A DNA stretch of 64,000 nucleotides. It comes from Thermodesulfobacteriota bacterium. Lineage in GTDB: Bacteria > Desulfobacterota > UBA8473. Shown piece after piece: positions 1,711 through 51,977 of the stretch (the stretch's first letter is position 1; each line of letters opens with the position of its first letter). The notes under the pieces were generated by a model. It searched no databases and was not told the origin of the DNA. It saw only the letters and a program-made list of their open reading frames with translations. The translations under genes were made by a program, and so were the position numbers. The DNA lies in assembly GCA_040757775.1 (NCBI GenBank), contig JBFLWQ010000007.1:1728-65727 (forward strand), read 5' to 3'.

Positions 1711-3090
1711 ATGATTGATGAAGATACAATAGCAGCCATAGCCACCCCATTTGGTACAGGTGGGATTGGAATCATTAAGATTAGCGGGCCTAAATCTTTT
1801 GAGATTGCAAAAAAAATTTTCAGGAGAAAGGCACAATCTTCCGAATTAAAACCCTACCATTTACACTATGGCGAGGTAATAGACACTCAAGACGACTCGG
1901 TAATAGATGAAGCCTTGCTGTCATTTATGCAAAAACCGACATCCTATACCAGAGAGGATGTGGTTGAGATAAACTGTCATAGTGGCTTTCTTGTTTTACA
2001 AAAAATCCTTGAAATCGTGTTAAAAGAAGGGGGCAGACTGGCAGAGCCAGGAGAATTCACAAAAAGAGCCTTTATCAACGGGAGAATTGACTTATCACAG
2101 GCTGAAGGAGTAGTTGACATAGTCAATTCCCAAACAAATGCCAGCCTTAGGGTAGCCACCCAACAACTAAAAGGTGTTTTATCAAAGGAGATAATTAAGC
2201 TAAAAGAAGACTTGATAAATGTGTTGACTTATATTGAAGCCTCTATCGATTTCCCGGAAGAAGACATCAACATAATCCCTCCTCATGAAGTGCTGAACAA
2301 GATCAAAGTATTGATGGACAATATCAGGAGATTAATAGATAGCTATGAAGAAGGAAGGTTTTATAGAGAAGGTATCTCAGCCATTATTATTGGAAAACCT
2401 AATGTAGGAAAATCAAGTTTGCTTAATGCCTTGCTCAAAGAAAAGCGGGCTATTGTCACCTCCATACCTGGAACAACCAGGGATATTATCGAAGAGGCAA
2501 TCAGTGTTGAAGGATTCCCCTTGAAGATTATAGATACAGCAGGGATAGGAGATGCTAAAGATATTATTGAAGAAGAAGGAATCAGATTAGCCAAAGAAAA
2601 GTTGACATCCGCTGACCTGGTAATCCTGGTAATAGACATTAGCCAGGAAATGGACCAAGGTAACTTTGGCATGGTTGCAGAACTGATGGGTAAGAAAGTC
2701 ATAATTGCATTGAATAAGATTGATTTAGTACCGGAGAGCTTCATTAGCAGAGCTAAGAATGAGTTAAAGAATTATTCCGTGACGCCCATCTCTGCTTTAT
2801 ATTCTCAAGGAATAGAAGAATTAAAAGAGGCGGTATTTTCTGCTATTATCCAGCATAAATTAGACACCCCCCCATCGGTATTCATCACTAACATAAGGCA
2901 TAAAATAGCTCTGGAAAAGGCTCTGGAAAATCTGGCACATGCCGGAGAAAGCCTAATTAAAGAAATGTCCCCGGAATTTACGGCATTAGATATACAGCTT
3001 TCACTAAAATGTTTGGGCGAAATCGTTGGTGAGACCACGTCTGAGGATATTCTGGACAGGATTTTTTCAGAATTCTGTATTGGAAAATAG
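1711..3090 (+). CDS. mnmE: tRNA modification GTPase MnmE
   Basis: 459 aa with G-domain motifs (GKPNVGKSSLLNAL, DTAG, NKID) and the C-terminal CIGK motif. Confidence 0.95.
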   Translation: MIDEDTIAAIATPFGTGGIGIIKISGPKSFEIAKKIFRRKAQSSELKPYHLHYGEVIDTQDDSVIDEALLSFMQKPTSYTREDVVEINCHSGFLVLQKILEIVLKEGGRLAEPGEFTKRAFINGRIDLSQAEGVVDIVNSQTNASLRVATQQLKGVLSKEIIKLKEDLINVLTYIEASIDFPEEDINIIPPHEVLNKIKVLMDNIRRLIDSYEEGRFYREGISAIIIGKPNVGKSSLLNALLKEKRAIVTSIPGTTRDIIEEAISVEGFPLKIIDTAGIGDAKDIIEEEGIRLAKEKLTSADLVILVIDISQEMDQGNFGMVAELMGKKVIIALNKIDLVPESFISRAKNELKNYSVTPISALYSQGIEELKEAVFSAIIQHKLDTPPSVFITNIRHKIALEKALENLAHAGESLIKEMSPEFTALDIQLSLKCLGEIVGETTSEDILDRIFSEFCIGK

Positions 3091-3152
3091 ACTATTATAC
3101 TTACCTGTTTCTGAGACCTTGCATAACCTATCGAGAGATTTCTCTCTTTCTC

Positions 3153-3899
3153 TTATTTCATAAATAGCCCTTTTTCCTTAAATGAGATGTATCCGGCAGA
3201 ACCTATTATCAGGTGATCGAGCGGTGTCAGGTCAACAGCATGGCAGGCTTTAACCAGTCTTTCATTCAATGACAAATCGTGCTTGCTAGGCTTTAAACTC
3301 CCTGAAGGATGATTGTGAACGAAGATGAGCCCGGAGGCATTCAATTCAAAGGCTTTTTTGATTATCTCCCTGGGATAGACAGCGGATTGATCGACAGTGC
3401 CCTTGAACAAATCCTCGGCAGCCAGGACCATATTGGCGCTATTCAGATAAATAACCTTGAAAACCTCTTCTTTTAGATTTGACATCGATAAAGAAAGGTA
3501 TTCAAGCACATCCTCAGGTCCGTTAATAACAGCCTTACCAATGATCTCTTCTTTCAATTGCCGCTTTGCAATCTCAGTAGCTGCAAGCAACTGCGCAATC
3601 TTGGCGGTCCCTAAACCTTTAATTTCTTCCAGTGCCTTTCTATTGGCATGCAGTAACCCCCCAAGGCCACCAAACTGTTCAAGAAGTTCTCTTCCCAGCG
3701 AGACCGCATCCTTTCCCTTTATGCCTGTACGGAGTAATATAGCTACCAATCCGGCATCGGATACATATTCAGTGCCTTTCTCCAATAATAGCTCCCGAGG
3801 TCTCTCTGACCTTGGCCAATTCTTTATTCCATCAGTTTTCTTAGTTTTATCCAGCTTATTAAGCAAATTACCCTTGACATACTCTCCTTTATTCCCCAT
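3153..3899 (-). CDS. radC: RadC-like JAB/MPN domain protein (UPF0758)
   Basis: N-terminal HhH-like region and a JAMM motif HNHPSG...S...D near the C-terminus. Confidence 0.85.
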   Translation of the reverse strand: MGNKGEYVKGNLLNKLDKTKKTDGIKNWPRSERPRELLLEKGTEYVSDAGLVAILLRTGIKGKDAVSLGRELLEQFGGLGGLLHANRKALEEIKGLGTAKIAQLLAATEIAKRQLKEEIIGKAVINGPEDVLEYLSLSMSNLKEEVFKVIYLNSANMVLAAEDLFKGTVDQSAVYPREIIKKAFELNASGLIFVHNHPSGSLKPSKHDLSLNERLVKACHAVDLTPLDHLIIGSAGYISFKEKGLFMK

Positions 3900-4119
3900 A
3901 ATTTCCTCAACCTGTTAAAAGATTTGGTTCTTCTCCCAGAACCCTTGAACCCTTGATGCCTTGAATCCTTTTCATCGACCAACTCTTTGGGAGATGAAAC
4001 ATAAGTATATTGATATCGCAGAAAACGTCAATACAGAATTTATTTTACAATACCAGTTTATATTAGAAGATGCGGACATTTTCTCGCTTAATAAATTGTT
4101 AGCATAACAGAAGGAAAAT

Positions 4120-4812
4120 ATGCCAAGCAAAGCATACAAAGCCTTTAATAAGAACGCGAGTGATATCCAGCGGCTCTTAGATGTCCACGAAGAACAAAGT
4201 GGAACCTCTCCGGGTCGGCGATATAGACTCGAGGTTTTGAATAAGAGCGCCATCGTTCTCATAACTTCCTTCTGGGAGGCATACTGCGAGGACTTGGCCG
4301 CTGAAGGCCTTGAGCACATTGTGACACACTCCACGTCCTCCGCTTCTTTGCCAAAGGAAATAAAGCAGGTTGTCGCCAAAGAGCTCAGGAAAGATGCGAA
4401 TGAATTGGCTGTTTGGTCTCTTTGCGGGGACGGCTGGAAACAAATCCTCCGTTCTAACCTCCAACGCTTACGAGATCAACGAAACAAGAAATTGAACACA
4501 CCAAAGACCGAAAATATAGATGAGTTGTTCTATAACGCTTTAGGTATACCTCATGTCTCGTCGTCATGGCGATGGGCAAAGAAAATGACCGCGAACAGAG
4601 CCCGCGAGAAACTCGATAAGTATGTAACCTTGCGGGGAGAGATTGCACACAGAGGAAAGGCAGCAAAAGCTGTAACAAAGGCCCAGGTCCAAGATTACTT
4701 TGAGTTTATCAAAAAGCTGGCTTCAAAAACAGGTGGCACTGTCAATACGCATGTGGGCAAGATTACCGGCAAACATCTATGGCCAATTCTAAGGCGTAGA
4801 ATCGTTTCATAG
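4120..4812 (+). CDS. HEPN-motif protein (putative RNase / abortive-infection type)
   Basis: 230 aa. Rx4H motif (RGEIAH) near the C-terminus as in HEPN nucleases. Good RBS AAGGAAAATATG. Visibly GC-richer than its flanks. Confidence 0.5.
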   Translation: MPSKAYKAFNKNASDIQRLLDVHEEQSGTSPGRRYRLEVLNKSAIVLITSFWEAYCEDLAAEGLEHIVTHSTSSASLPKEIKQVVAKELRKDANELAVWSLCGDGWKQILRSNLQRLRDQRNKKLNTPKTENIDELFYNALGIPHVSSSWRWAKKMTANRAREKLDKYVTLRGEIAHRGKAAKAVTKAQVQDYFEFIKKLASKTGGTVNTHVGKITGKHLWPILRRRIVS

Positions 4813-5000
4813 AAATGCTAACAAAATTATCAAGCCTACGCCGGGGAAACCTGTTTTCTCTTCTTCTCGTTCTTTGGCCCGCGCGGCTGATGATAAGTGT
4901 TGAGCCTATAGAAAAAGTCTAAACTGATCGGGAAACTAAATTTACGTATAAGGACTTTTTTACAGACTAGTTATAAGGTTCAAGTAATCAAGGGAATGTA

Positions 5001-6314
5001 ATGGATTCAAAATTTAAATATGTTTTCCTTGATGCGATGATTTTTTTGCATTTTAAACCTGTTGAGCAAATTGATTGGCCTAGCTTACTCAACAGCATGC
5101 CAGTTCGGTTAACTCTCACCCGTATTACCATTAGAGAGCTAGATAAGCACAAATCAGTACATCCATCTCCTAAAATTAAGGATCGAGCGAGAAGAACTTT
5201 GAAAAAGATTGAAGCTTTTTTGAAGTCACCAGATATGCCAATAAGGGAAGGCGTTGAAATAACTTTTTATGACGAAATGCCGTCACTAGATTACCCTTCC
5301 TATGGTCTAAATCCTGATTGGTCCGATGACATTCTTATCGCCACAATTCTTTCTTATGCGCAAAAATGGGACAGAAATAGTATCGTTTTAGTAACAGACG
5401 ACACCGGTATGAGGATTAAAGCCAACTCTCTTGATATTGAAACATTTGAACTGCCAGACGATCTTCGTCTCCCAATTGAACCTGACCCTTTGGTTGAAGA
5501 GAACCGGAAGCTTAGAGAGAAGCTTACAATACTGAGCGCAACTTTGCCGGAATTGCATCTCTATTTTGACAATGGAGAATCCTTTAAGAAATTTGAATTC
5601 GACACCGAGGGGTATGAAACAGTTGAGAAACGAATATCTCGGATAACTGCTGAAGTAGAAAAAGAGAGAAAGAAAAGGGAATATACCCCAAATGTATTGC
5701 TTCATGTTTCTAGCATGCATTCTCCAACTCAGCAAGAGATGGAGCGTTTCAAAAGAGACCTGAACGAATATTTGAAACAGTACGAATCCTACCTAAACGA
5801 TCTTAGTGATTGGAAGCTTTCCAAGTCTAAGATATTCGCAATAGAATTTAATGTTGTTAATGAAGGTAATGCACCTGCTGAAGATATTGATATTCTAATT
5901 TACTTTCCTGACGGCTTCTTGATTCGGAAGGAGGATGATTTGCCAGCAATACCAAAACCACCGAAGGAACCAATTCCGCCGAAATCAACTCTTGAATTAA
6001 TTCAAAGCCGTTTCGATATTATTAAAAATTTTAGCTTACCTTCATATGATCAATCCATCCTTTCATCACTTTCTAGAAATGTCCCGAGAAACGTCTCTGG
6101 TCCCAAGATAAAGCGAACTGAAAGCTATAAGGTTGAATACCACATAAGTCGACTAAAACATGGGTTTTCTATAAAACTTGATGCCGTATATTTAGACTTT
6201 TCTGAATCCGTTGGAATTAAATCTTTCGAGGCTAAATATTGGATCAACGCAGGGAACATGCCAGAAAGTGCAGAAGGCAGCCTGCATGTAATATTTGAAT
6301 CCAAAATCTTATAA
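5001..6314 (+). CDS. PIN-like domain protein with ~290-aa C-terminal extension of unknown function
   Basis: N-terminal 140 aa show a PIN-like acidic pattern (YVFLDAMIFL ... LVTDDTGMRIKA). Remainder has coiled-coil/unknown segments. AT-rich composition. Confidence 0.45.
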   Translation: MDSKFKYVFLDAMIFLHFKPVEQIDWPSLLNSMPVRLTLTRITIRELDKHKSVHPSPKIKDRARRTLKKIEAFLKSPDMPIREGVEITFYDEMPSLDYPSYGLNPDWSDDILIATILSYAQKWDRNSIVLVTDDTGMRIKANSLDIETFELPDDLRLPIEPDPLVEENRKLREKLTILSATLPELHLYFDNGESFKKFEFDTEGYETVEKRISRITAEVEKERKKREYTPNVLLHVSSMHSPTQQEMERFKRDLNEYLKQYESYLNDLSDWKLSKSKIFAIEFNVVNEGNAPAEDIDILIYFPDGFLIRKEDDLPAIPKPPKEPIPPKSTLELIQSRFDIIKNFSLPSYDQSILSSLSRNVPRNVSGPKIKRTESYKVEYHISRLKHGFSIKLDAVYLDFSESVGIKSFEAKYWINAGNMPESAEGSLHVIFESKIL

Positions 6315-6380
6315 CCACAGGTTGGAAAAGGGTGCGAGACTTCACTCGTACTCCTCAGCCTAGCCCTTAGGAGGGATGGA

Positions 6381-6905
6381 ATGAAAAAAATTAGCATTAT
6401 AGGTGGTTTTCTCATCGTTGTCGCTATTGTTGGATTTCTTTACGTAAAAGGGACACCACAGTACTCTCTCTACCAGTTTAGAAATGCTGTAGAAAACCAT
6501 GATGCCGATACTGCAATTAAGTATTTTGATGTGGATAGCATTGTCGATAATTTAATGACAGATTTTATGAAAGAAGAGGAAGCCAAGAAGCCTAAAAATG
6601 GATGGGAAGCAATGGGACAAAATTTTGCAAGAGGACTTATGGTGTTGATGTTGCCACGGATGAAAGAAGCAATGAAAGGACAATTGAAAACTGCGATAAC
6701 TACACCATCTGATGATAAAACTGCTGTCAAAGACATCAAAAAGGGGAGCATCTCAGATTTTGAGATAAAAACTGAAGGCAAAATGGCGATTGTTTCCCGT
6801 AAGGATGATCCCAAAGTGAAGTTTAAAATGGTGAAGACGCCTGAGGGTTACTGGAAAATAGTTCAACTAATGATGCCCGAAACACTGCAACACGTACAGA
6901 AATGA
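6381..6905 (+). CDS. DUF2939-like membrane-anchored protein
   Basis: N-terminal TM helix followed by PQYSLYQFRNAVENHDADTAIKYFDVDS, the signature stretch of the DUF2939 family. Strong RBS AGGAGGGATGGAATG. Confidence 0.5.
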   Translation: MKKISIIGGFLIVVAIVGFLYVKGTPQYSLYQFRNAVENHDADTAIKYFDVDSIVDNLMTDFMKEEEAKKPKNGWEAMGQNFARGLMVLMLPRMKEAMKGQLKTAITTPSDDKTAVKDIKKGSISDFEIKTEGKMAIVSRKDDPKVKFKMVKTPEGYWKIVQLMMPETLQHVQK

Positions 6906-6927
6906 AAATAAACATACCGAGGAGAAG

Positions 6928-7362
6928 ATGATAAAACTCTATAATCTGAGCTGCTTCATCGCCATTATTTTTTTGTTCGTCCTGTTCAGTTCCGCTATTG
7001 CAAAAGAGCAAAATAAGGGAGTTGCGGTTGAAATTACGCAACAACAAAGCTCAATTAACACAGGCAAAAAATTTATAACTCTTGGATTTAAGGGCATTCA
7101 TTTGGGAATGAAACGGGATGAAGTTAAAGAAGTTGTTAGTTCCGGCAACGGATGGAGTTTCCGATACGGTTCCGATGTCTCTGACGAGTACGTATTTTTG
7201 AACTCAGAAACTCTTGTTGGCTGCAAAGATCAAGGTGAAACTGAAGAATGTTATAGGATCGACACGGTAGCACTCCGGTTTTTTGAGGATCATGTTATTC
7301 AAATAAGTCTTGATAGCCCGGAGTATACCGCGACTGACATAGATTATTATGTCAAGGGGTGA
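6928..7362 (+). CDS. Secreted hypothetical protein (signal peptide)
   Basis: Hydrophobic N-terminus ending ...SSAIA-KEQ. RBS GAGGAGAAGATG. Confidence 0.4.
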   Translation: MIKLYNLSCFIAIIFLFVLFSSAIAKEQNKGVAVEITQQQSSINTGKKFITLGFKGIHLGMKRDEVKEVVSSGNGWSFRYGSDVSDEYVFLNSETLVGCKDQGETEECYRIDTVALRFFEDHVIQISLDSPEYTATDIDYYVKG

Positions 7363-7588
7363 GAGCGTTTCAGCTTACAAATACTAAAAAAGAAATTTAG
7401 AAACCCTTCGAAGACTAATCTCAGCATAGATAGATTCAATATATTTTCGGTACAGAGCGGTTATTCAGTGCAACGTTATGAATGGAACAGGAAGGACTAG
7501 ACGATTATACTTGCTATAGATTCAAATTATTTCAAGTATTATGCAAAAATTCGATACATCAATAGGAAAGCAAGGATCTGGAAGATCT

Positions 7589-7704
7589 GGGGTCAGGTCT
7601 TGAATTATGAGTTTTATTCAAATATTCATTGCATTACAGTGAAGACAGTTGTGAAAAATGAACGCTTGTAGGTCGCGCAATCTGATAATTCAAGACTTGA
7701 CCCC
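7589..7704. repeat. 116-bp element bounded by 20-bp inverted repeats (GGGGTCAGGTCTTGAATTAT / ATAATTCAAGACTTGACCCC, 19/20 complementary)
   Basis: Read directly from the 387-bp intergenic region upstream of the T5orf172 gene. Could fold into a long stem-loop. Confidence 0.6.
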
Positions 7705-7749
7705 ATTTGGACTTAGATTATTATTGTCTGCAATTAAAAGGACGAAAAT

Positions 7750-8676
7750 ATGAAAGTACCTCTCAAAAAAGCGATTAATTCTTTATCTTGGTATAACTGT
7801 CAAACAGAATGTTGGCCCGTAACATTTAAGGATAATGAAATAATTAATTATCAAATAAAAGTATTGTCGTTTGAGAGAATTAACTTAACAGAAGTAGATG
7901 GCTCAGACAAAATCAGTCTGAATTTAGAAAATGGCATCTTATGGATATTACGGGTTGAGGTCGTAAATTTGTGGAAAAAAACAATATCCTCATTTCCAAT
8001 TTACGACTCTGTAATATTAATTGATAAGGACGGTTCAGAATATAAGCCTATAACTGATGACCATTTGACGAATGAATCTCACTCCAACTATGCCATGTCA
8101 TCAGGATTAAATCTTCTTAATGGGAGTTCTGGCTATCGCTGTGGAGAATTAATTCCGAAAGTTCCATTGAAAGGTGCGCTTGCGTTTCTTTTACCTATGA
8201 CTGAAAATGACAGGTTTTATTTATCAGTTGAAGGGGGAAAGATTTGGGAAAGAAAAGAAACCGAAGAAAAGAATTCATTGCAAGGTTGGATTTATGCGTT
8301 GACCAATCCATCTTTACCACAAAACTTTCTCAAAATTGGCATGACGACACGTACCCTTGAAGAAAGACTAAAAGAACTTTCATCTAACACTGGTGTCCCA
8401 ACTCCGTTCCGTGTTGTTTTTGAAGCAGAGGTCTCGGATTGTAAACAGGTGGAAATGATAATTCATCACAACTTAGCGAAATATCGCCATAGTTCTAGTA
8501 AAGAATTCTTTGATTTACCACAGAACGAGGCAATCCCAATTTTGGCCAGAATATGTTCACAATTCCCAATAAAACCTTCACCATCGCCTGAAGAAATAGC
8601 AAAAGAAAAAAGAGTAAATGAAATAGAGGCTGAAATTGAACGACTAAAAGAAGAACTGGAAATTTTGAAAGGATGA
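7750..8676 (+). CDS. T5orf172 (GIY-YIG-superfamily) domain protein with an unknown ~190-aa N-terminal domain and C-terminal coiled coil
   Basis: Region GWIYALTNPSLPQNFLKIGMTTRTLEERLKELSSNTGVPTPFRVVFEAEV...EFFDL matches the T5orf172/MUG113 GIY-YIG-like signature. C-terminus has heptad-like EIERLKEELEILKG. Confidence 0.6.
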   Translation: MKVPLKKAINSLSWYNCQTECWPVTFKDNEIINYQIKVLSFERINLTEVDGSDKISLNLENGILWILRVEVVNLWKKTISSFPIYDSVILIDKDGSEYKPITDDHLTNESHSNYAMSSGLNLLNGSSGYRCGELIPKVPLKGALAFLLPMTENDRFYLSVEGGKIWERKETEEKNSLQGWIYALTNPSLPQNFLKIGMTTRTLEERLKELSSNTGVPTPFRVVFEAEVSDCKQVEMIIHHNLAKYRHSSSKEFFDLPQNEAIPILARICSQFPIKPSPSPEEIAKEKRVNEIEAEIERLKEELEILKG

Positions 8677-8689
8677 GCGGTCATACTTA

Positions 8690-8719
8690 GGGACGTTGTT
8701 TCTAATTAATAAATTACTT
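8690..8719 (+). repeat. Copy 1 of a 26-30-bp motif (GGGACGTTGTTTCTAATTAATAAATTACTT)
   Basis: Begins 13 nt after the stop of 7750..8676. The 26-mer CGTTGTTTCTAATTAATAAATTACTT recurs exactly at 10603..10628, and an inverted 18-mer at 8851..8868. Confidence 0.7.
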
Positions 8720-8850
8720 GGCAGGCAGTCGGTTTTTATATAGAACCGTATCATGCTGCGACAAGCTACGGGCAGGTGGGCGTGAATACATCGCGGGTAT
8801 TACAAAGGCAATCGAGAGGGTTGAACAACGTTATGGCTATAAATATCATG

Positions 8851-8868
8851 AATAGAAACAACGTCCCC
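8851..8868 (-). repeat. Inverted copy (AATAGAAACAACGTCCCC) of the 5' part of the 8690 motif
   Basis: Reverse complement GGGGACGTTGTTTCTATT matches 8690..8704. Together with copy 1 it forms a potential ~180-bp hairpin/MITE-like unit. Confidence 0.6.
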
Positions 8869-8961
8869 AAAGGTTTCCTTTATATCAAGGCTAATCTGCT
8901 TGTCGATCATTGGTTAGATTTATAAAAATCTATTGAAGACCAATATAGGATTTCAACAGCT

Positions 8962-9600
8962 ATGAATACACTTGAAAAACTAAAGAAGAAAAGATTTCTA
9001 TTTATGAATCGGTTATATGAGATTAGTGGTGGAGATCGTCACAAAGTTTTCGATGAATGGAAAGATATTTGTGAGGTGCGTAATTTTTCAGAAAGTGAAT
9101 GTGAAACAATTTCACAATATCTAGAGGGGGAGGGTCTTATTAAATGGGTAGCACAGGGCGGTGCCATCTCAATTACACATAGAGGGGTTATGGAGGTAGA
9201 AGAAGCTTTAACTGAGCCGGAACAATCTACCAATTATTTTCCACCTGTAATTAACATTATTAATGTTCACCATATGGAAGGTTCACAAATTCAACAAGGT
9301 TCTTATCAAAGCACTCAATCTGTAAGTTTTTCTCATGAAACACAAAAAAGTCTTCAGGAATTCATTGAGTTACTAAAAGAGAAGTTACCAAATATCCAAA
9401 TTGCACAAGATGATCGTTCGGAGATTCAGGCCGATATATCAACAATAGAAGCACAAATAAATTCTATCCGCCCGAAGCCAAGTATAATAAAGGAGAGTCT
9501 AAGTTCAATTCAGCGTGTTCTCGAAAGCACAACAGCAGGAATCATTGCAGGAGAATTGTTAAAATACTTACCTGCGTTATTTGCAGCTCTTCAAGTCTAA
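8962..9600 (+). CDS. Hypothetical cytoplasmic protein
   Basis: 212-aa ORF; no motif recognised beyond a possible small helix-turn-helix-like N-terminal segment. Weak RBS. Confidence 0.35.
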   Translation: MNTLEKLKKKRFLFMNRLYEISGGDRHKVFDEWKDICEVRNFSESECETISQYLEGEGLIKWVAQGGAISITHRGVMEVEEALTEPEQSTNYFPPVINIINVHHMEGSQIQQGSYQSTQSVSFSHETQKSLQEFIELLKEKLPNIQIAQDDRSEIQADISTIEAQINSIRPKPSIIKESLSSIQRVLESTTAGIIAGELLKYLPALFAALQV

Positions 9601-9886
9601 CACTTATAAGACCTCCCCTTGTCAAGAGAAAAAAGGACCCTGATCGGAAAATATAAATAAAAAATAATACGTAGGAACGTCCATTTGTAAATTAGTTTAC
9701 AATTTTTGGAATAGCAAGAATAGCACAATTTTTAATAGCAAGGGGGTAGATGCTTCGACCGTAAAAGCCGGGGCCGAAAAAGAAACATGGTTGAATTGAG
9801 TATTGTGGCCCCATAACCTCCATAACCTTTTCCCCAAAACCTTCAATTACTGAAACTGGCACAAAAACGACAATAGGAGGTAACAG

Positions 9887-10570
9887 ATGCAAGCTACTCG
9901 TAACATAGTCATGACGACCGTTCTTATTGCAATGATCTTTCCGACATATGCATTCGGCCAATCCGCGAAAGAGGCAATTCTTGCTCTGAAAAAGCTTCAG
10001 GTAAAAGTTCAAACTGGCATAACTTATAAGGAATACTCACCCGCAGTTGCTGAGGCGAAGTTTCCCGTTATTGTTTTTCTTGAAAGCCCGGAGGGAAAGC
10101 TAGACACTGCATTGTCTGCATATCTTTCAAAAGCTGTACGGCACTATGATAATGCAATTTCAGTCTGGGGAATCAAATTTTCCAGCAGGAGAGTCGAAAG
10201 CCGTATTTACGCTGATAAAAATCGAGAGTTATTCGAAGCAGTAATTAGAATGTACCCAGATTCCCCTGTAAATGTGACTGGGTACACAAAGCAGAGCTAT
10301 ATAGACATCGGGGAAATGTTGTCTTTCATTTGGACGAAAGCCTCTATTGAACTCGAAAAGGCATCAGGGTTATTGGCACAAGTGGAATCTAATGCCAAGG
10401 CTTTGAAGCTAGAAGGCCAATTATTACAAAAGGAAAACGAGCAGTTGAAGGCAGAGATTACTGTAATGAGAACTGAAATTGAACGATTGAAGGTCGAAAA
10501 CAAGAAACTGCAACAAGAAGTTGATACTCTTAAGAGTAAGCCGACTTCTCAAAAGAAGGCAAAACAATGA
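9887..10570 (+). CDS. Secreted protein with C-terminal coiled coil
   Basis: Signal-peptide-like N-terminus (…IFPTYAFG-QS). C-terminal heptad-rich region (LEGQLLQKENEQLKAEITVMRTEIERLKVENKKLQQEVDTLK). Strong RBS AGGAGGTAACAGATG. Confidence 0.45.
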   Translation: MQATRNIVMTTVLIAMIFPTYAFGQSAKEAILALKKLQVKVQTGITYKEYSPAVAEAKFPVIVFLESPEGKLDTALSAYLSKAVRHYDNAISVWGIKFSSRRVESRIYADKNRELFEAVIRMYPDSPVNVTGYTKQSYIDIGEMLSFIWTKASIELEKASGLLAQVESNAKALKLEGQLLQKENEQLKAEITVMRTEIERLKVENKKLQQEVDTLKSKPTSQKKAKQ

Positions 10571-10597
10571 TTTTGACAAGCCAGCTAAACAATACTT

Positions 10598-10629
10598 GGG
10601 GGCGTTGTTTCTAATTAATAAATTACTTT
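10598..10629 (+). repeat. Copy 3 of the 26-30-bp motif (GGGGGCGTTGTTTCTAATTAATAAATTACTTT)
   Basis: Exact 26-mer shared with 8694..8719. Lies 28 nt after the stop of 9887..10570 and is followed by the tandem AATTCTGGGGAATTCTGGGGAC. Confidence 0.7.
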
Positions 10630-10722
10630 GCTGAAATTCTGGGGAATTCTGGGGACACAATACTTAATTATTAACAAGGGAGATTCGGCCTCTAACGTTA
10701 TTACAGTAAACCAATTTTCAAA

Positions 10723-10757
10723 TTGACATTCTCCCATTACGGATATACAATGTATAT
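10723..10757 (+). promoter_or_regulatory. Sigma70-like promoter (TTGACA-17 nt-TACAAT) overlapping a 15-bp palindrome ATATACAATGTATAT; likely mazEF promoter/operator
   Basis: Read directly: -35 at 10723..10728, -10 at 10746..10751, palindrome at 10743..10757, about 25 nt upstream of the mazE start. Confidence 0.5.
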
Positions 10758-10780
10758 TATACGTGTAAGGAGGCATAAAT

Positions 10781-11032
10781 ATGCAAGATAATATGGAGTT
10801 ACAAATTGGGAAATGGGGGAATTCGCTTGGTATTCGACTTCCAAAGCATGTATTAGAATCACTCCATCTGGGTGTAAAAGATCGGGTCAGTTGCTCATTA
10901 GAGGATGGAAAATTGATTTTAAAGCCTTTGTCTCACCAAAAGAAATACACATTAGAAGCGTTGCTCGCCCAAGTGCAAGAACCCGGTGTAGAAGTTTCAT
11001 GGGGTAAACCTGAAGGAGAGGAAGTTTGGTAG
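10781..11032 (+). CDS. mazE: MazE-type antitoxin (SpoVT/AbrB fold)
   Basis: MQDNMELQIGKWGNSLGIRLPKHVLESL... is the typical MazE/PemI swapped-hairpin antitoxin. Overlaps the downstream mazF by 7 nt. Confidence 0.8.
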   Translation: MQDNMELQIGKWGNSLGIRLPKHVLESLHLGVKDRVSCSLEDGKLILKPLSHQKKYTLEALLAQVQEPGVEVSWGKPEGEEVW

Positions 11033-11361
11033 ACTATACCCCAAAACGCGGAGATTTTATTCGCCTTAATTTTGATCCACAAGCTGGACATGAACAAAAG
11101 GGAAGCAGACCAGCTTTAGTCGTAAGTCATAGCGCTTTTAATGAAAAAATGGGGTTCGTTTTTGTTTGTCCCATCAGCAACACAAAACGTAAAAATCCAT
11201 TTTATGTAGCCATACCCAAAGGTAAAAAAGTTACAGGGATGATCATGGCAGATCAGTTGCGTTCGCTTGATTACGGAGCTAGAAATGCGGCCTACATTAG
11301 CAAATGTCCAGAAGAACTACTACATGAAGTCTTAATGCGTATAGACCCTATAATGTTCTAA
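11026..11361 (+). CDS. mazF: MazF/PemK-type endoribonuclease toxin
   Basis: 111 aa: ...YTPKRGDFIRLNFDPQAGHEQKGSRPALVVS...MIMADQLRSLD is classic MazF. Probable TTG start overlapping the mazE stop. Confidence 0.8.
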   Translation: MVDYTPKRGDFIRLNFDPQAGHEQKGSRPALVVSHSAFNEKMGFVFVCPISNTKRKNPFYVAIPKGKKVTGMIMADQLRSLDYGARNAAYISKCPEELLHEVLMRIDPIMF

Positions 11362-11407
11362 CTTACATGTATTGTAGTCGCCGCATTAGGGCGCATGAGA
11401 CCCATTA

Positions 11408-11956
11408 ATGAACACATCAGAAAAAGTCTGGCAAGAATATCATTCAAGGCTGCGTGCGTTTATTAAGAGCAGAATTATAGATGACGCGGCGACCGATGAC
11501 ACTCTTCAGAACGTATTTCTGAAAATGCATGCCGGATTGGATTCCCTGAAGGATGAGACAAAGCTGCAAAGCTGGCTCTACCAAATTGCAAGAAACGCTA
11601 TCATCGACTATTTCAGGTCGCAGAAGCCCACCGTAGATATTCCTGAGTGGCTCCCGCAACCCGAAACCGATCCCAGCGAAAAGGTCACACAAGAGTTGTC
11701 GGAATGCCTGCAACCCATGATACAATTGCTGCCCGAGAACTATCGGGAGGCGGTCATTCTCTCCGAATTAAGAGGATTGACGCAGAAGGAAGTTGCCAAA
11801 TTGCAGGGCATTTCCCTTTCCGGAGCCAAATCCCGAATACAACGGGGGCGTACCCTTTTGAAAAACATGCTGGCAGAGTGCTGTCGTTTTGAGTTCGATC
11901 ATAGTGGACGGCTCTGTGATTATAAACGAAAAGGTAAGGCTTGTGATACCTGTTGA
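11408..11956 (+). CDS. ECF-type RNA polymerase sigma-70 factor with Cys-rich C-terminal tail (SigZ-like)
   Basis: Sigma-70 region 2 (…LQNVFLKMHAGL…WLYQIARNAIIDYFR) and region 4 (LSELRGLTQKEVAKLQGISLSGAKSRIQRGR). Terminal CCRFEFDHSGRLCDYKRKGKACDTC. GC-rich relative to flanks. Confidence 0.75.
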   Translation: MNTSEKVWQEYHSRLRAFIKSRIIDDAATDDTLQNVFLKMHAGLDSLKDETKLQSWLYQIARNAIIDYFRSQKPTVDIPEWLPQPETDPSEKVTQELSECLQPMIQLLPENYREAVILSELRGLTQKEVAKLQGISLSGAKSRIQRGRTLLKNMLAECCRFEFDHSGRLCDYKRKGKACDTC

Positions 11957-12044
11957 CCATCGGATACAGATCGTTTGCGTCTTTTTTGATCTTTTTCCGT
12001 CTATAGGGTGAGCGTTGCTCATTAACCCCATAGAGGAGGTTTAA

Positions 12045-12851
12045 ATGGACAAGCAAAAGAATGACGAGATTCGCAGTGCGGTTCGGGAGAATTACGGAAA
12101 GGTTGCTGCATCAGGGCGGGCTGGTTGCGGCTGCTCTACCTCATCCTGTTGTGTAACACCCAATGATGTGACGTCAGCGGATATTTCGCTTGGCTTGGGT
12201 TACTCTTGCGAGGATGTGACCGCTGTGCCGGAAGGAGCAAACTTGGGACTTGGGTGTGGCAATCCGCAGGCCATCGCCTCCTTGCAACCCGGCGAAACGG
12301 TGCTCGACCTGGGTAGCGGCGGAGGATTCGACTGTTTCCTGGCGGTGCGGGCCGTTGGGGATAAGGGACTTGTCATCGGTGTTGACATGACGCCGGAGAT
12401 GATCACCAAATCCCGCCGGAACGCGGAGAAAGCCAGCCTCTGGAACGTCGATTTTCGGCTGGGAGAGCTGGAAAACCTTCCGGTTGCCGATGGAATTATT
12501 GATGTCATCATTTCGAATTGCGTAATCAACCTTTCTCCCGAGAAAGAAAGGGTTTTCAGCGAGGCTTTCCGAGTATTGAAACCGGGTGGACGATTGGCGA
12601 TTTCCGATGTTGTTGCAACCGCTGAACTGCCAGAGGACATTAAAAAAGATATGGCATTCCACACCGGATGTATAGCGGGTGCATCTTCTGTCGAAGAACT
12701 CCAATCTATGTTGCAACGAACCGGTTTCGAGAACATTCAGATCAAACCAAAAGAGGAAAGCAGGACATTTATCCGTAACTGGATGCCTGGAAGCAAGATC
12801 GAGGACTATGTGCTTTCGGCAACTATTGAGGGAGTGAAACCCCGGGTCTGA
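12045..12851 (+). CDS. arsM: Arsenite S-adenosylmethionine methyltransferase (ArsM-like)
   Basis: SAM-binding motif VLDLGSGGGFD. Conserved Cys pairs (GCGCS...CC; ...NCVINL). GC-rich; strong RBS AGAGGAGGTTTAAATG. Confidence 0.75.
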   Translation: MDKQKNDEIRSAVRENYGKVAASGRAGCGCSTSSCCVTPNDVTSADISLGLGYSCEDVTAVPEGANLGLGCGNPQAIASLQPGETVLDLGSGGGFDCFLAVRAVGDKGLVIGVDMTPEMITKSRRNAEKASLWNVDFRLGELENLPVADGIIDVIISNCVINLSPEKERVFSEAFRVLKPGGRLAISDVVATAELPEDIKKDMAFHTGCIAGASSVEELQSMLQRTGFENIQIKPKEESRTFIRNWMPGSKIEDYVLSATIEGVKPRV

Positions 12852-13049
12852 CAGGCAGGCGTTTAGCTTTTACACAAGAAGATTGCGGTAGCCCGATATA
12901 AAGATTCATATACCCAGAGAAAGCTCATCCCCATCTTTCTTGAAAAACAAATCCCACCAAGAGGACAAAATCGCTAAAATGAAACTTACATGCCTCAAAG
13001 AGACACAAAGAATAAGTAAAATGTCTTTGCGAGGAGATCGCCATAGGCG

Positions 13050-13164
13050 AACAGCCCCTACAACAGCACACTTAAGTGTGCTGTTGTTAAGAATGGGATT
13101 GCTTAATCCGCCTCTGGCGGATTCGCAATGACAGGAATAGGTACATTTTCAAGTGAAAGAATCT
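13050..13164 (+). repeat. R-element copy 1: 26-bp perfect palindrome CAACAGCACACTTAAGTGTGCTGTTG (13061..13086) + hairpin AATCCGCC-TCTG-GGCGGATT + conserved leader running into the rsmG start
   Basis: About 85% identical over ~100 bp to 44196..44311, including the stretch AATGACAGGAATAGGT..ATTTTCAA(G/A)TGAAAGAA that carries the start codon. Confidence 0.75.
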
Positions 13165-13809
13165 ATAGAGGGAATCCTTTATAAAGGGGCAAATGCAATA
13201 AATGTCTCTTTGACCCCCAGGGAGATTGAACTATTTAAAACTTACCTGATGGAGCTAAAGAGGTGGAGTTCTAAAATAAATATTACCGCCATACACGATG
13301 ACATAGAAATTGTGGTCAAACATTTCATTGACTCTCTTTCCCCGTTGAACTATATACCCCAAAACTCCTCCTTGCTGGACATTGGTTCAGGAGGGGGGTT
13401 CCCAGGTATACCTTTGAAGATTGCAAATCCGTCTTTATCTGTTACTTTGCTCGATTCTACCCTGAAGAAGGTAAACTTCCAAAAACAAATAATAAGACTA
13501 CTACAACTGAATAATATTAAAGCAGTGCATGGAAGGGCCGAAGATAAAAGCTCCTACAGAAAAACGGATTCACCTTTTGACGTGGTTATTTCAAGGGCAT
13601 TTTCAGGTTTAGGGAAATTTTTAGCTATAGGAGAACCCTATTTAAAGAGAGACGGGCTCCTGATAGCTATGCGTGGAAGGGGGGCAAAAAGAGAACTGGC
13701 TGTAAATGAAGAGGTGTTGACATGTCTGAGGCTAAAGCTTGTTAACATAGTTGAATTTAACTTGCCGTACTTAAATGAAAAGAGAAAGCTTATCGTACTT
13801 ACTAAATAG
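13153..13809 (+). CDS. rsmG: 16S rRNA (guanine527-N7)-methyltransferase RsmG
   Basis: GidB family: ...LKRWSSKINITAI..., SAM motif LLDIGSGGGFPGIPL. GTG start lies inside the R-element. Confidence 0.9.
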   Translation: MKESIEGILYKGANAINVSLTPREIELFKTYLMELKRWSSKINITAIHDDIEIVVKHFIDSLSPLNYIPQNSSLLDIGSGGGFPGIPLKIANPSLSVTLLDSTLKKVNFQKQIIRLLQLNNIKAVHGRAEDKSSYRKTDSPFDVVISRAFSGLGKFLAIGEPYLKRDGLLIAMRGRGAKRELAVNEEVLTCLRLKLVNIVEFNLPYLNEKRKLIVLTK

Positions 13810-14017
13810 TTCATCCTGAAAAATTCCCTTTTCCGCTCTCTGGTGCAGGTTTTTTGACCCATCTATGACTTGCTCCAGGCATTTTCAGGAACTCTCCGCC
13901 TTTAGCGGATCAAACACCTGAAAATGCTTATCTTCCGCTTTATCAAGATGGGTACCCCAAAAATCCTGCTCATGTTTGCTCCAAAAGAAATTTTTCATTT
14001 TTCAGGGTGGACTAAAT
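13803..14017 (-). mobile_element. MITE-like element copy A (~215 bp) with ~16-bp terminal inverted repeats AGTTCAYCCTGAAAAA / TTTTTCAGGGTGGACT and flanking ACTAAATA
   Basis: Reverse complement is ~85% identical over its length to 51739..51956. Inserted exactly at the rsmG stop codon. No conserved ORF. Confidence 0.65.
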
Positions 14018-14138
14018 ACTCTATTGAAGACTCACCTGTCTGCTAAGAATATAATCTTCCAGTATATAATTTCCCTACATTTTTATAGCGTTTCAGCCAC
14101 TTTAGAAAAGGCATTCAGGTGATCTCTAAAAAGCAAAA

Positions 14139-16042: not shown

Positions 16043-16202
16043 CCCCATAATTACCAAACTCTAACTTCAGTGTAGGTTCCTTGACACAAGCCATGAGCAA
16101 CAATCCGCTCAGGGCTTTCCGGAGTTTAATTCAAGGTTTTTATACCATATGTAGTATTTTAATTTACTTTTACTACATTATGTTGTAAACTAGAAAATGT
16201 TA

Positions 16203-18680
<2,478 letters not shown>

Positions 18681-29707: not shown

Positions 29708-29938
29708 TTATTTCCCTTTCTCTGCTGGAGCAGGAGCCTGTTCTGCTGGAGCAGGAGCCTGTTCTGCTGGAGCAGGGGCCTGTTCTGCTGGAGCAGGAGC
29801 TGGAGTCACTTGTTCCGTTGGTGCCCCCGCTTCCTCGGCCGGTTTTCCCTTGCATCCAATAGTAGATACTGTCAGGCCAAGGACAAAGAAAAAGCAAACC
29901 AAAAGATAACCTAATTTCCTCATCGTTTTCACCTCCAT
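29708..29938 (-). CDS. Small lipoprotein with (PAPAEQA)n tandem repeats
   Basis: Signal peptide with lipobox ...STIGC. Three 21-bp DNA repeats (29721..29800) encode AEQAPAP x3. Confidence 0.55.
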   Translation of the reverse strand: MEVKTMRKLGYLLVCFFFVLGLTVSTIGCKGKPAEEAGAPTEQVTPAPAPAEQAPAPAEQAPAPAEQAPAPAEKGK

Positions 29939-44166: not shown

Positions 44167-44195
44167 GCAGGGGAAGAATCAATGAAACCCGCGAG

Positions 44196-44311
44196 CGACC
44201 CCTTCAGCAGCACACTTAAGTGTGCTGTTAAAAAGGATGGGATTGCTTTGCCTGCCTGTGGCGGGCTCGTAATGACAGGAATAGGTGTATTTTCAAATGA
44301 AAGAAGCGATG
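44196..44311 (+). repeat. R-element copy 2: 20-bp perfect palindrome CAGCACACTTAAGTGTGCTG (44208..44227) + hairpin GCCTGCC-TGTG-GCGGGC + conserved leader running into the amrS start
   Basis: Homologous to 13050..13164. The hairpin arms carry compensatory changes relative to copy 1. Confidence 0.75.
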
Positions 44312-48224: not shown

Positions 48225-48332
48225 GAGCTTTGAAAAACTTCTGCTATGTCATTTCGGCTCCCTCGCTTGTCATTCCGAATCCGCCTCTGGCGGATGAGGA
48301 ATCTTGTTATTTGAGTAGATTTTCAAAGCTCT
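48225..48332 (-). repeat. R-related 108-bp element with 13-bp terminal inverted repeats (AGAGCTTTGAAAA / TTTTCAAAGCTCT) around the hairpin GAATCCGCC-TCTG-GGCGGAT
   Basis: Its central hairpin is the same as in R copy 1 (13050..13164). Sits in the mlaE-mlaF spacer. Confidence 0.6.
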
Positions 48333-49167: not shown

Positions 49168-50217
49168 ATGAAGAAGATGTCCACTGAAATAAAGGTAGGT
49201 GTGTTCGTGGTACTGGGAATACTTGTCCTTGCCTACATGACTGTAAATATAGAGAAGATAAGGATTGGCAGGGCGGTGGGATATAGAGTGTATACAAAGC
49301 TGGACTCTGCCTCAGGGTTGGTTAAGAATTCACCTGTCAGGATTGCAGGCGTTGAAGTAGGCAGGGTAGAAAACATTGCCCTCGATGCTGGAAAGGCAAA
49401 GGTGACCTTACGTCTCCCCTTTCAGGTAACCCTGCCCGTTGATTCTCTGGTTTATGTGAAATCAGAGGGACTCTTAGGCGAAAAGTATATCGAGATTCAA
49501 CCAGGTTCGTCTAAAGATGTATTTGCCCGGCAAAATGCTGAAATCAGGCAGGGGGCATCTCAGGTAGACATGGATCAGATATTTGCTCAAGTAAACTCTG
49601 TTGCCACAGATATTAAAGGAGTAACTGCCTCATTAAACAGGGTATTAGGGGGGCAAGAAGGCGAACAGACCTTGAGAAAGACCTTTGAAAATATTAAAGA
49701 GGTAACCAATGAGTTGAATATAACAGTGAAGCAAAATAGAGAAAAATTTAGTACTATTATGAATAATTTTGAAAAACTCAGCGGTAACCTGGTCGGGGTA
49801 TCTGCCAAGGCTGGAGATGCCTTTAACACTATAGACAGGGTCGCAAAGAAGATCGACAATGGGGAGGGAACCCTGGGTAAACTGGTGGCGGATAAAACTC
49901 TATATGACCAGTCCAAAGGTGCCATGGCAAGCCTTAACAATATAGTCAAAAAGATTGAAAAGGGGGAGGGAACTCTGGGTAAACTGGTGGCGGATAAAAC
50001 TCTATATGACCAGTCCAAAGGTGCCATGACAAGCCTTAACAATATAGCCAAAAAGGTTGAAAAGGGGGAGGGAACCCTGGGCAAATTGACTACTGACGAG
50101 ACCCTTTATACTGAGACAAAGAGTGCCCTAAAGAAGGTTAATAAGGCTGCCGGAGGGTTACAGGAGCAAACTCCTATAACTGTGTTGGGGACTGTTTTAG
50201 GTACTGTTTTGAAATAG
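49168..50217 (+). CDS. mlaD: MCE-domain protein MlaD with three ~28-aa C-terminal tandem repeats
   Basis: N-terminal TM + MCE domain. Three copies of GEGTLGKL(V/T)ADKTLYDQSKGAM.SLNNI.KK(I/V)EK encoded by ~84-bp DNA repeats at about 49850..50130. Confidence 0.8.
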   Translation: MKKMSTEIKVGVFVVLGILVLAYMTVNIEKIRIGRAVGYRVYTKLDSASGLVKNSPVRIAGVEVGRVENIALDAGKAKVTLRLPFQVTLPVDSLVYVKSEGLLGEKYIEIQPGSSKDVFARQNAEIRQGASQVDMDQIFAQVNSVATDIKGVTASLNRVLGGQEGEQTLRKTFENIKEVTNELNITVKQNREKFSTIMNNFEKLSGNLVGVSAKAGDAFNTIDRVAKKIDNGEGTLGKLVADKTLYDQSKGAMASLNNIVKKIEKGEGTLGKLVADKTLYDQSKGAMTSLNNIAKKVEKGEGTLGKLTTDETLYTETKSALKKVNKAAGGLQEQTPITVLGTVLGTVLK

Positions 50218-51740: not shown

Positions 51741-51956
51741 ATAGTTCACCCTGAAAAACGAGAAGTTTCCTTTGGAGCGAACATGAGCAGGATTTTTGGG
51801 GTACCCATCTTGACGAAGCGGAAGATAAGTCAGCCTTTGGCGGATTTGACCCGCCAGAGGCGGGGAGTTCCTGAAAATGCCTGAAGCAAGTCTAGGATGG
51901 GTCAAAAAACCTGCGCGGGAGAGCGGAAAAGGGAATTCTTCAGAGTGGACTAAATA
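51739..51956 (+). mobile_element. MITE-like element copy B (~218 bp) with terminal inverted repeats AGTTCACCCTGAAAAA / TTCTTCAGAGTGGACT and flanking ACTAAATA
   Basis: ~85% identical to the reverse complement of 13803..14017. Inserted at the stop codon of the lipoprotein gene. Confidence 0.65.
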
Positions 51957-51977
51957 CAGATGAAAGGACTGAAAAAT

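Follow-up and report, generated by a model that had tools for sequence, protein, structure and literature searches.

Whether genes that stand between two copies of a repeated sequence arrived there together is a question raised by a segment of ~1.9 kb in a 64,000-nt stretch of DNA (the window) from contig JBFLWQ010000007.1 of a Thermodesulfobacteriota bacterium. The segment carries two genes of uncertain affiliation and is bracketed by an exact direct repeat of a 26-mer, close to a third gene whose product contains a T5orf172 domain. A preliminary description of the sequence interpreted the arrangement as an integrated cassette, or as gene capture mediated by a miniature inverted-repeat transposable element (MITE), next to a defence-type nuclease gene. 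The three open reading frames (ORFs) on which that description was based are present as described at 7750-8676 (308 aa), 8962-9600 (212 aa) and 9887-10570 (227 aa). The answer reached here is a different one: very probably the 26-mer is the terminal-repeat core of a decayed mobile element of the TIRYT type, and the direct repeat that brackets the two genes is debris of such elements and not the border of a cassette. Coordinates without a contig label are positions in the window, and L001-L026 denote comparison contigs.

The direct repeat and its inverted copy

The 26-mer CGTTGTTTCTAATTAATAAATTACTT occurs exactly twice on the + strand of the window, at 8694-8719 and 10603-10628, where no copies were expected from a control of 100 shuffles. 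The 26-mer is exact at both sites, and the direct repeat is longer than the preliminary description had stated, as 37/40 nt (93%) agree between 8683-8722 and 10592-10631. The inverted partial copy that had been noted between the two also was found, in the form of a perfect 15-mer: GGGACGTTGTTTCTA is located at 8690-8704 on the + strand and at 8853-8867 on the - strand with 0 mismatches, and the inverted arms around this 15-nt core can be extended to 29 nt at 79% (8687-8715 and 8842-8870). The inverted position of the 15-mer at 8853-8867 marks 8687-8870 as a unit with inverted termini. Over 10592-10628, the second copy of the repeat is 94.6% identical to the first copy, compared to 97% identity with the element ends on contigs L012 and L013 that are described below.

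Both copies of the 26-mer are placed just 3′ of stop codons, at distances of 7 and 22 nt, and a function as terminator had been put forward for checking. A terminator or hairpin role was ruled out by a terminator scan and by folding of the 40-mer: no intrinsic terminator, that is, a G+C-rich hairpin followed by a T run, was detected within 7300-10900, and the 40-mer does not form a hairpin (-0.9 kcal/mol, z about 0). Searches against Rfam at gathering thresholds and for tRNAs each returned no matches, which indicates that neither an RNA gene nor a tRNA integration target is involved. A further match between the 3′ portions of two of the genes (8630-8655 and 10473-10498; 26 nt, 81%) was considered as possible gene-end homology, but was treated as chance because its offset is 1843 nt instead of the 1909 nt of the 40-mer and because it sits in coiled-coil codons (EIERLK).

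Homology to a transposase-bearing element

The repeat is homologous to the ends of a transposase-bearing element. The reference copy on metagenome contig L013 is a near-complete element of ~770 bp in which a left repeat (258-293) is succeeded by a promoter-like TTGGCA-17-TAGAAT sequence, an ORF of 195 aa (327-911) and a right inverted repeat (1001-1028; TAGAAACAATGTCCCCAAAGGTT) that overlaps the stop codon. The product of the ORF matched the Pfam family Y1_Tnp ("Transposase IS200 like") with an E-value of 1.6e-15. Among NCBIfam models, the best match was to the tyrosine transposases associated with repetitive extragenic palindromes (REPs), abbreviated RAYT, at 2.4e-19 and 69.7 bits, the IS200 model giving just 0.0014. 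HUH (HVH) and RYIHLNP motifs are visible in the protein, and a PDB sequence search with it produced no match at E <= 0.01. A C-terminal tail that was stitched from the L013, L012 and window frames, with no intact ORF behind it, matched the helix-turn-helix (HTH) families Sigma70_r4_2 (6e-6) and HTH_23 (7e-4), in both cases below the Pfam cut-offs.

The window contains an internally deleted relic of this element at 8684-8878 (195 bp, + strand). Positions 8684-8766 align with L013 258-340 at 94% identity, and positions 8771-8878 align with L013 923-1028 at ~90%; this two-end alignment identifies the window copy as the same element minus ~580 nt of the transposase gene. At its two ends, the relic has the left terminal repeat that includes the first 26-mer (8684-8720) and, in inverted orientation, the right terminal repeat (8842-8878). 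Also kept are a promoter-like TTGGCA-17-TAGAAC sequence (8718-8746) and two pieces of the transposase gene, namely its initial 6 codons from an ATG at 8753 (remnant translation MLRQAT...) and its last ~27 codons (...GITKAIERVEQRYGYKYHE), which terminate in a stop at 8853-8855. The second 26-mer is part of a solo left terminal repeat of 37 nt on the + strand (10592-10628) that is 97% identical to both L012 1230-1266 and L013 258-293. Neither promoter nor transposase sequence follows position 10628, after which the sequence diverges from all copies of type A, and no Y1 transposase gene was found anywhere in the 64-kb window.

Copies on other contigs have the same construction. A further two-ended relic with another deletion is present on L009 (7019-7175, 157 bp), and between 12 and 39 N-terminal transposase codons are kept in L012, L016, L004 and the L006 group. 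The internal deletions thus differ among the window relic (195 bp), L009 (157 bp), L004 and L012. On several contigs, the motif leads into a conserved promoter-like stretch, TTG(G/A)CA-17-TAGAAT, that is followed by an ORF beginning MPRQARLDIPGALHHIMVRGINKADIFDDDQDK. Very probably, the 26-mer is the central part of a left terminal repeat of ~37 nt, TACTTGGGGACGTTGTTTCTAATTAATAAATTACTT, that belongs to a small mobile element, termed family 1, which would consist of a promoter, one RAYT-like Y1 (HUH) tyrosine transposase gene with a probable C-terminal HTH, and an inverted repeat over the stop codon. The window keeps two dead remains of family 1, namely the two-ended relic at 8684-8878 and the solo left end at 10592-10628. 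By analogy with TnpA of IS200/IS605 and with Escherichia coli TnpA-REP, the element may have transposed by a mechanism in which single strands are cut and rejoined at its terminal repeats.

Dispersal of the repeat and the cassette interpretation

The public scans for the repeats relied on exact matching, and repeat abundance and conservation are outside their reach. In a scan that included one genome per species and that used an exact 21-mer core (21/23-mer), the core was recovered from 6 contigs of 4 related metagenome-assembled genomes (MAGs) of sulfate-reducer type, which are labelled Desulfobacteria, Desulfobacterales, "Deltaproteobacteria" and Thermodesulfobacteriota. A metagenome scan furnished 12 more contigs with the motif. 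Including the window, the motif occupies at least 13 distinct contexts with unrelated flanks, and mostly it is attached to Y1 transposase fragments. Among terminal repeats in general, those of the two further families described below included, solo ends exist in the window (10592-10628) and on L004, L005 and L008, a dimer is found in the window (7588-7705), and clusters are formed at 10592-10685 in the window and at 3740-3945 on L021. As a separate observation, tandem partial reiterations of the repeat tip, such as GATACTTGGATACTTGGGGACGTTGTGGATACTTGGGGACG, are situated just outside copies on L012 (1200-1240), L019 (40-80) and L016 (380-420, - strand), and reiterations also occur in the window at 10636-10655 (ATTCTGGGGAATTCTGGGGAC).

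The 37/40-nt direct repeats might be attL/attR-like junctions of a site-specifically integrated two-gene cassette of 1.9 kb, as the preliminary description had suggested. The two copies are near identical and in direct orientation, each is just 3′ of a stop codon (7 and 22 nt), and the segment shares the lower G+C content of the surrounding variable island (0.37-0.39, compared to ~0.43 elsewhere). However, the first copy runs on into remnants of the transposase gene and a matching right end, the motif recurs in the unrelated contexts described above, and the second copy is nearer to the L012/L013 consensus (97%) than to the first copy (94.6%). Moreover, no recombinase is present among the ORFs of 3-13 kb and no IntI-like match was obtained in the window; neither a recombinase in or beside the segment nor a repeat that behaves as a single attB was found. 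Homologues of the 212-aa protein occur without the motif: all three repeat families defined here were looked for at the homologue loci L022-L025, and none was present. The cassette interpretation fails also because the two genes are outside both elements, between the right end at 8842-8878 and the left end that starts at 10592, and because two left ends in direct orientation do not constitute a valid pair of termini. An integrated cassette is extremely improbable on this evidence. Of the proposed capture by a MITE, the MITE half applies in a loose sense, since the stretch 8684-8878 derives from a Y1-transposase element by internal deletion and has both of its ends, but nothing was found in favor of capture itself.

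Instead of bordering a cassette, the bracketing direct repeat probably is a by-product of two separate insertions of family-1 elements, followed by decay, in short intergenic spaces of the island between mnmE and rsmG. The same spaces also contain the family-2 ends (10644-10685 and 9794-9816) and the family-3 dimer (7588-7705) described in the next section. On this reading, the T5orf172 gene and the two enclosed genes are independent accessory genes that are placed between elements and that probably are anti-phage genes, a role suggested for the T5orf172 gene and for 8962-9600 by profile matches. The preliminary description had itself named a common, terminator-like intergenic motif without ties to the enclosed genes as an outcome that would speak against its reading; in substance such a motif was observed, as the repeat is dispersed and, as far as 8962-9600 is concerned, unlinked to the enclosed genes, although it is not terminator-like.

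Two further families of terminal repeats

A second family is represented at 10644-10685 (+ strand) by a left end, AATTCTGGGGACACAATACTTAATTATTAACAAGGGAGATTC, that is 92.9% identical to L021 3773-3814. The tandem ATTCTGGGGA precedes this end, and its tip, GGGGACAC, is at 10651. A 23-nt fragment of the family-2 terminal repeat, TTATGGGGCCACAATACTCAATT, at 9794-9816 (- strand) forms the inverted partner of 10647-10669 with 87% complementarity. On L021, the family-2 left end precedes TTGACA-17-TACTAT and the start of a Y1-like ORF, MARIGRVVAPGLPHHITQRGNRRQQTFF, which resembles the N-terminus of a second RAYT-like transposase. Family-2 sequence also is present twice in the L006-group locus and once on L013 (215-245).

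The third family was recognized, by arm complementarity and folding, in a palindromic 118-bp element upstream of the T5orf172 gene (7588-7705) which is a dimer of inverted terminal repeats with the tips GGGGTCAGGTCTTGAATTATG. Its arms (7588-7614 and 7679-7705) are 27 nt long and 89% complementary, and as single-stranded DNA the element folds strongly (-23.4 kcal/mol, z = -4.95), in agreement with the upstream inverted-repeat element that had been noted before. On L004, the right end of a family-1 relic is interrupted by a shorter relative of ~62 nt (7466-7527). The left ends of all three families share an organization in which GGGG(A/T)C is followed, after 8-10 nt, by a TAATTA-like stretch and a -35 box. 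In scans of viral contigs, families 1 and 2 gave no matches; the family-3 16-mer gave 25, which by a rough estimate that was not computed is approximately the chance level for a 16-mer.

Evidence that weighs against the assignment

A number of observations weigh against assignment of the 26-mer to a decayed TIRYT-type element. The copy number is low, with 1-3 copies per genome (MAG) at the exact 21-mer level. No empty site that lacks either insertion was found, and sites without the 1.9-kb segment, which the preliminary description had proposed to seek, likewise were not encountered; we therefore infer the two independent insertions. Every copy recovered is degenerate and no intact transposase was seen, the L013 gene itself being frameshifted before the HTH-like C-terminal tail, so that activity of the family is unproven. 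The NCBIfam score of 69.7 bits falls under the RAYT equivalog cut-off (80 bits). The family-1 tip, GGGGACGT, fits the GGGGWSAS sequence of certain TIRYT-associated repeats (see below) at 6/8 positions. As the sole homologue of the 227-aa protein is on a contig of 922 nt, the test for absence of the repeats covers 8962-9600 alone. Finally, a 30-mer of the terminal repeat continues in L007 and L010/L011 into other sequence, with the beginning of an ORF for a DDE-type (DUF772-like) transposase; for this, the simple model gives no explanation.

The junctions on these three contigs are located at L007 3463 downward (- strand), L010 1796 downward and L011 1471 onward, and the 30-mer is joined at one identical position in each. 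The adjoining sequence consists of a ribosome-binding site and an ORF start, VARYKDYSYTQGKFIPIFFEKQILPGTFEYSLNQI, that at the N-terminus is similar to a DUF772 + DDE_Tnp_1_6 transposase; for the L007 ORF, this resemblance is weak (E = 2e-3). The flanking contexts of L007 and L010/L011 differ. Site-specific insertion of a DDE insertion sequence (IS) into the repeat and a shared end are candidate explanations. From the L007 ORF start, the motif had first been attributed to one end of an IS of the IS1182 type; this was discarded as most copies join the Y1 gene instead.

The T5orf172 gene as a mobile unit

The gene at 7750-8676 (+ strand) encodes a protein of 308 aa in which a beta-sandwich (aa 1-167) is followed by a T5orf172 GIY-YIG-like domain (aa 179-269) and a long helix (aa 280-307). 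The T5orf172 domain recorded in the preliminary description is borne out by a Pfam match of 1.6e-17 and 64.3 bits (cut-off 20 bits) to aa 179-269 that spans profile positions 1-101 of 101. In a PADLOC scan that covered four proteins (5001-6314, 7750-8676, 8962-9600 and 9887-10570), the protein matched PDC-S57 at 1.9e-29, with the nuclease domain alone contributing (profile positions 5-103 of 212). The earlier designation as a defence-type nuclease gene is reasonable to the extent of these profile matches (PDC-S57, nuclease domain). The AlphaFold2 model has a mean pLDDT of 91.5, and in Foldseek comparisons the N-terminal domain resembles YxkC, YjhA and MPT63-type beta-sandwiches. This domain defines a family of 148 cluster representatives, mostly stand-alone proteins of ~155 aa, that repeatedly are fused to T5orf172. 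The family (window 7750-8274, aa 1-175) is without a Pfam model, and its variants include tandem duplicates in one protein as well as fusions to T5orf172, to T5orf172 plus HNH (once) or to DUF5655.

With T5orf172 phage homing-endonuclease-like genes and PDC-S57, the window gene shares a clear T5orf172 domain, the status of a tightly bounded mobile unit and a defence-island neighborhood (HEPN, PIN, MazEF and AbiTi-like genes), but it differs in the addition of the N-terminal MPT63/YxkC-like beta-sandwich and the C-terminal long helix. Contigs L026 and L001 carry T5orf172 genes that are 92-93% identical to the window gene, and the stretch in common is restricted to window positions 7712-8681, which indicates that the gene moves as a tight unit. 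The breakpoints of this module abut the repeats: ~7712 compares with an element end at 7705, and ~8681 with an element start at 8684. On L001, the 93%-identical T5orf172 gene is followed, 145-450 nt downstream, by a TIRYT-like relic of another family (880-1200). This relic has the repeats TTGGGGACGTCC and TTTGGGGACGCCCTTTA / TAAAGGGCGTCCCCAA and keeps 46 N-terminal codons of a Y1 transposase. An ORF that starts at L001 1569 presumably is IS481-like.

A more distant homologue of the fusion protein is located in a true integron, L003 1-5762. The IntI protein of this integron (TIGR02249, 311 bits; 265 aa) matches in two stretches with an apparent internal deletion, and its gene is succeeded by six co-oriented cassettes with canonical attC sites (e.g., 5576-5647). 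The last cassette encodes a 40%-identical, full-length homologue of the beta-sandwich and T5orf172 protein, and a CTTGGGGACGCCC motif lies ~60 nt after this gene, between it and its attC. Thus, the fusion is in one instance a bona fide integron cassette.

The L003 locus prompted the idea that the window region is an integron-type cassette array (cluster of attC sites lacking integron-integrases, CALIN) whose repeats are lineage-specific, non-canonical attC sites. The cassette in L003, the exchange of the T5orf172 module as a tight unit (7712-8681) between contexts, the co-orientation of the genes and the presence of a toxin-antitoxin (TA) pair, which is typical cassette cargo, are compatible with this idea. 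Co-orientation is uninformative, however, as the whole window is co-oriented beside origin-region genes and the orientation of genes consequently says nothing about cassettes. No intI is present in the 64 kb, with a best E-value of 0.9 in a tblastn search of the window with L003 IntI. The inverted cores read 5′-GTTGTTT...AAACAAC-3′, the reverse of the attC order RYYYAAC...GTTRRRY. No attC was detected in the island by crude scans that combined home-made regular expressions with complementarity and that have weak sensitivity and specificity, as of the ~5 attC sites that the true integron L003 has, they recovered only 1-2. An integron array is judged to be very improbable, mainly on the ground that the repeats demonstrably are the ends of transposase genes.

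Alternatively, single defence genes might be shuffled with the help of the relics, which then would be junctions for recombination or exchange, or else portable promoters; this is a variant of the capture that the preliminary description had in mind. In the comparison with L026/L001, the T5orf172 module has both of its breakpoints within a few nucleotides of repeat elements, a different TIRYT-like relic is downstream of the T5orf172 gene on L001, and the CTTGGGGACGCCC motif follows the homologue on L003. In other MAGs, repeat copies sit between TA pairs. Furthermore, the right arm of 7588-7705 supplies a promoter-like TTGACC-16-TATTAT site (7697-7724) ahead of the T5orf172 gene. The comparison nevertheless extends to three contexts, too few for a test, variable islands gather both kinds of sequence in any case, promoter-like sites are not in excess of shuffled sequence (11 found, 11.4 expected), and neither reciprocal products nor empty sites were seen. 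A role for the relics in gene shuffling is therefore regarded as improbable. Equally improbable is the broader proposal of a non-integron "cassette" system in which single defence genes such as 7712-8681 are exchanged among genomes and decayed TIRYT-type terminal repeats, at the breakpoints, are the junctions; if this were true, TIRYT-type repeats would organize the turnover of defence islands in Desulfobacterota.

The enclosed genes and the mnmE-rsmG island

The first of the enclosed genes (8962-9600, + strand) encodes a protein of 212 aa that in its C-terminal half resembles AbiTi and PDC-M14B. PADLOC matches were to PDC-M14B (1.2e-10) and AbiTi (9.3e-7; aa ~101-205), and no Pfam match was obtained for the protein. 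The family has 49 homologues. Homologue loci adjoin Shedu and type I restriction-modification genes (L023) or are contained in a prophage (L024/L025) or in an array of small ORFs (L022), and the loci on L022-L025 have no partner gene in common. The gene thus is a probable stand-alone gene of defence islands, as judged from sequence comparisons. Like AbiTi of the Lactococcus AbiT system (AbiTi/AbiTii), the C-terminal half of the protein covers the AbiTi profile (10-112 of 114). The protein differs in an additional N-terminal region of ~90 aa, its homologues are single or are tandem paralogues, and no AbiTii-like partner, and hence no adjacent AbiTi and AbiTii pair, was found among the four neighboring proteins that were scanned against PADLOC. 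On L023 (2206-9505), two tandem AbiTi-like paralogues of 217 and 295 aa share only the C-terminal module and have a Shedu (SduA_C) gene on one side and a type I restriction-modification operon on the other, and on L024/L025 the AbiTi-like homologue is in a prophage between divergent modules.

The second gene (9887-10570, + strand) specifies a 227-aa protein with a signal-peptide-like N-terminus, recognized by eye as the hydrophobic segment MTTVLIAMIFPTYAFG, and a C-terminal coiled coil; its Pfam matches are sub-threshold and of the coiled-coil type only. The protein is a near-orphan: apart from itself, 5.8 billion clusters yielded a single homologue. Downstream, and outside the repeats, a mazE/mazF toxin-antitoxin pair (10781-11361, + strand; Pfam MazE_antitoxin 1.6e-10, PemK_toxin 2e-26) has its own promoter-like TTGACA-17-TACAAT sequence (10723-10751).

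These genes belong to a variable island of ~10 kb with lower G+C content (3100-13150) between mnmE (1711-3090) and rsmG (13153-13809), in the order yidC-jag-mnmE, island, rsmG-parA-parB. No ORF of the size of mnmG is present between mnmE and rsmG. The island encodes RadC, HEPN (RiboL-PSP), PIN (PIN_4), DUF2939, T5orf172, AbiTi-like, coiled-coil and MazEF proteins, an ECF sigma factor and a methyltransferase, and it places on record an mnmE-rsmG variable island beside origin-region genes. The beta-sandwich and T5orf172 fusion and the AbiTi-like family are candidates for single-gene, horizontally exchanged anti-phage functions.

Other repeats in the window were noted in passing. A MITE-like repeat of ~220 bp, bounded by ACTAAATAGTTCAYCCTGAAAAA and TTTTTCAGGGTGGACTAAATAC, is present after rsmG (13801-14021) and, inverted, before a gene at 51960 (51735-51952), the full copies being 86-88% identical; a partial copy is at 16202-16224. 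A 120-nt direct repeat (82%) at 13047-13166 and 44191-44310 includes a near-perfect palindrome, AACAGCACACTTAAGTGTGCTGTT, and a second hairpin, AATCCGCCTCTGGCGGATT. Its copies are just upstream of rsmG and of a gene starting at 44285, and the hairpin motif recurs at 48278-48302. A coding tandem repeat at 49846-50151 has three 102-nt units (100/93/62%) within the ORF 49168-50217, and four 21-nt tandem units at 29721-29821 are in a coding region on the strand opposite to the usual gene orientation.

Comparison with known systems

The repeats of the window are accounted for by a known class of mobile element, and the significance of the finding is modest in this respect. Three terminal-repeat families of RAYT-like/TIRYT elements nevertheless are defined in Desulfobacterota-type MAGs, which should help annotators to avoid misreading such sequences as att sites or regulatory motifs.

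Similarly to IS200/IS605 elements and their deletion derivatives (MITE-like or PATE-like), family 1 has a Y1 HUH transposase (Pfam Y1_Tnp) and is small, and the window copy is a non-autonomous internal deletion that has both ends. In contrast, the ends of IS200/IS605 are subterminal hairpins without terminal inverted repeats, and the NCBIfam IS200 model matches weakly here (0.0014). An amplified MITE family would have many copies with identical deletion endpoints; instead, each relic has its own deletion endpoints, which argues that no such family is involved.

The REP/REPIN-RAYT systems (Nunvar 2010; Bertels and Rainey 2011, PMC3116915) possess a related transposase family, the best NCBIfam match of the L013 protein, and as in these systems the repeats are extragenic, mostly 3′ of genes, and include an inverted dimer with a long hairpin (7588-7705). 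However, the 37-mer is not palindromic (fold z about 0) and is without a GTAG tag, copies are few per genome instead of hundreds, and several decayed transposase copies contrast with the one domesticated gene of those systems. The combination of a self-complementary unit of 20-40 nt, a GTAG or CGTC tag and a high copy number by which REP/REPIN sequences are recognized was not found here.

The closest correspondence is with RAYT-like genes that have long terminal inverted repeats (TIRs) on either side instead of REPs, which Di Nocera et al. (2013, PMC3733652) designate "TIRtrons" encoding "TIRYT". According to the same source, some TIRs share GGGGWSAS, TIRs may overlap the 3′ end of the gene, and TIRs are scattered as singles, dimers or groups. 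TIRYT have been equated with subclass 2.1 of TnpA-REP, which has a C-terminal HTH (Quentin et al. 2018, PMC6006769); the HTH families of this subclass are HTH_23, HTH_28 and Bac_DnaA_C. The elements described here similarly have a single RAYT-like Y1/HUH gene between long terminal inverted repeats without REP hairpins, and the transposase is closer to RAYT than to IS200 as judged on L013. The right repeat of family 1 overlaps the 3′ end of the gene, which may also encode a C-terminal HTH, as suggested by sub-threshold matches, and the window repeats also occur alone, as dimers and in clusters. The tips begin with GGGG and fit GGGGWSAS fully in family 2 (GGGGACAC, 10651) and family 3 (GGGGTCAG, 7589). 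A possible difference is that the hosts are Desulfobacterota-type MAGs; moreover, the copies are all degenerate and few in number. With the exact GGGGWSAS fit of families 2 and 3, the partial fit of family 1 and the sub-threshold HTH matches taken together, the repeats of the window are filed as new members of the known TIRYT/TIRtron kind.

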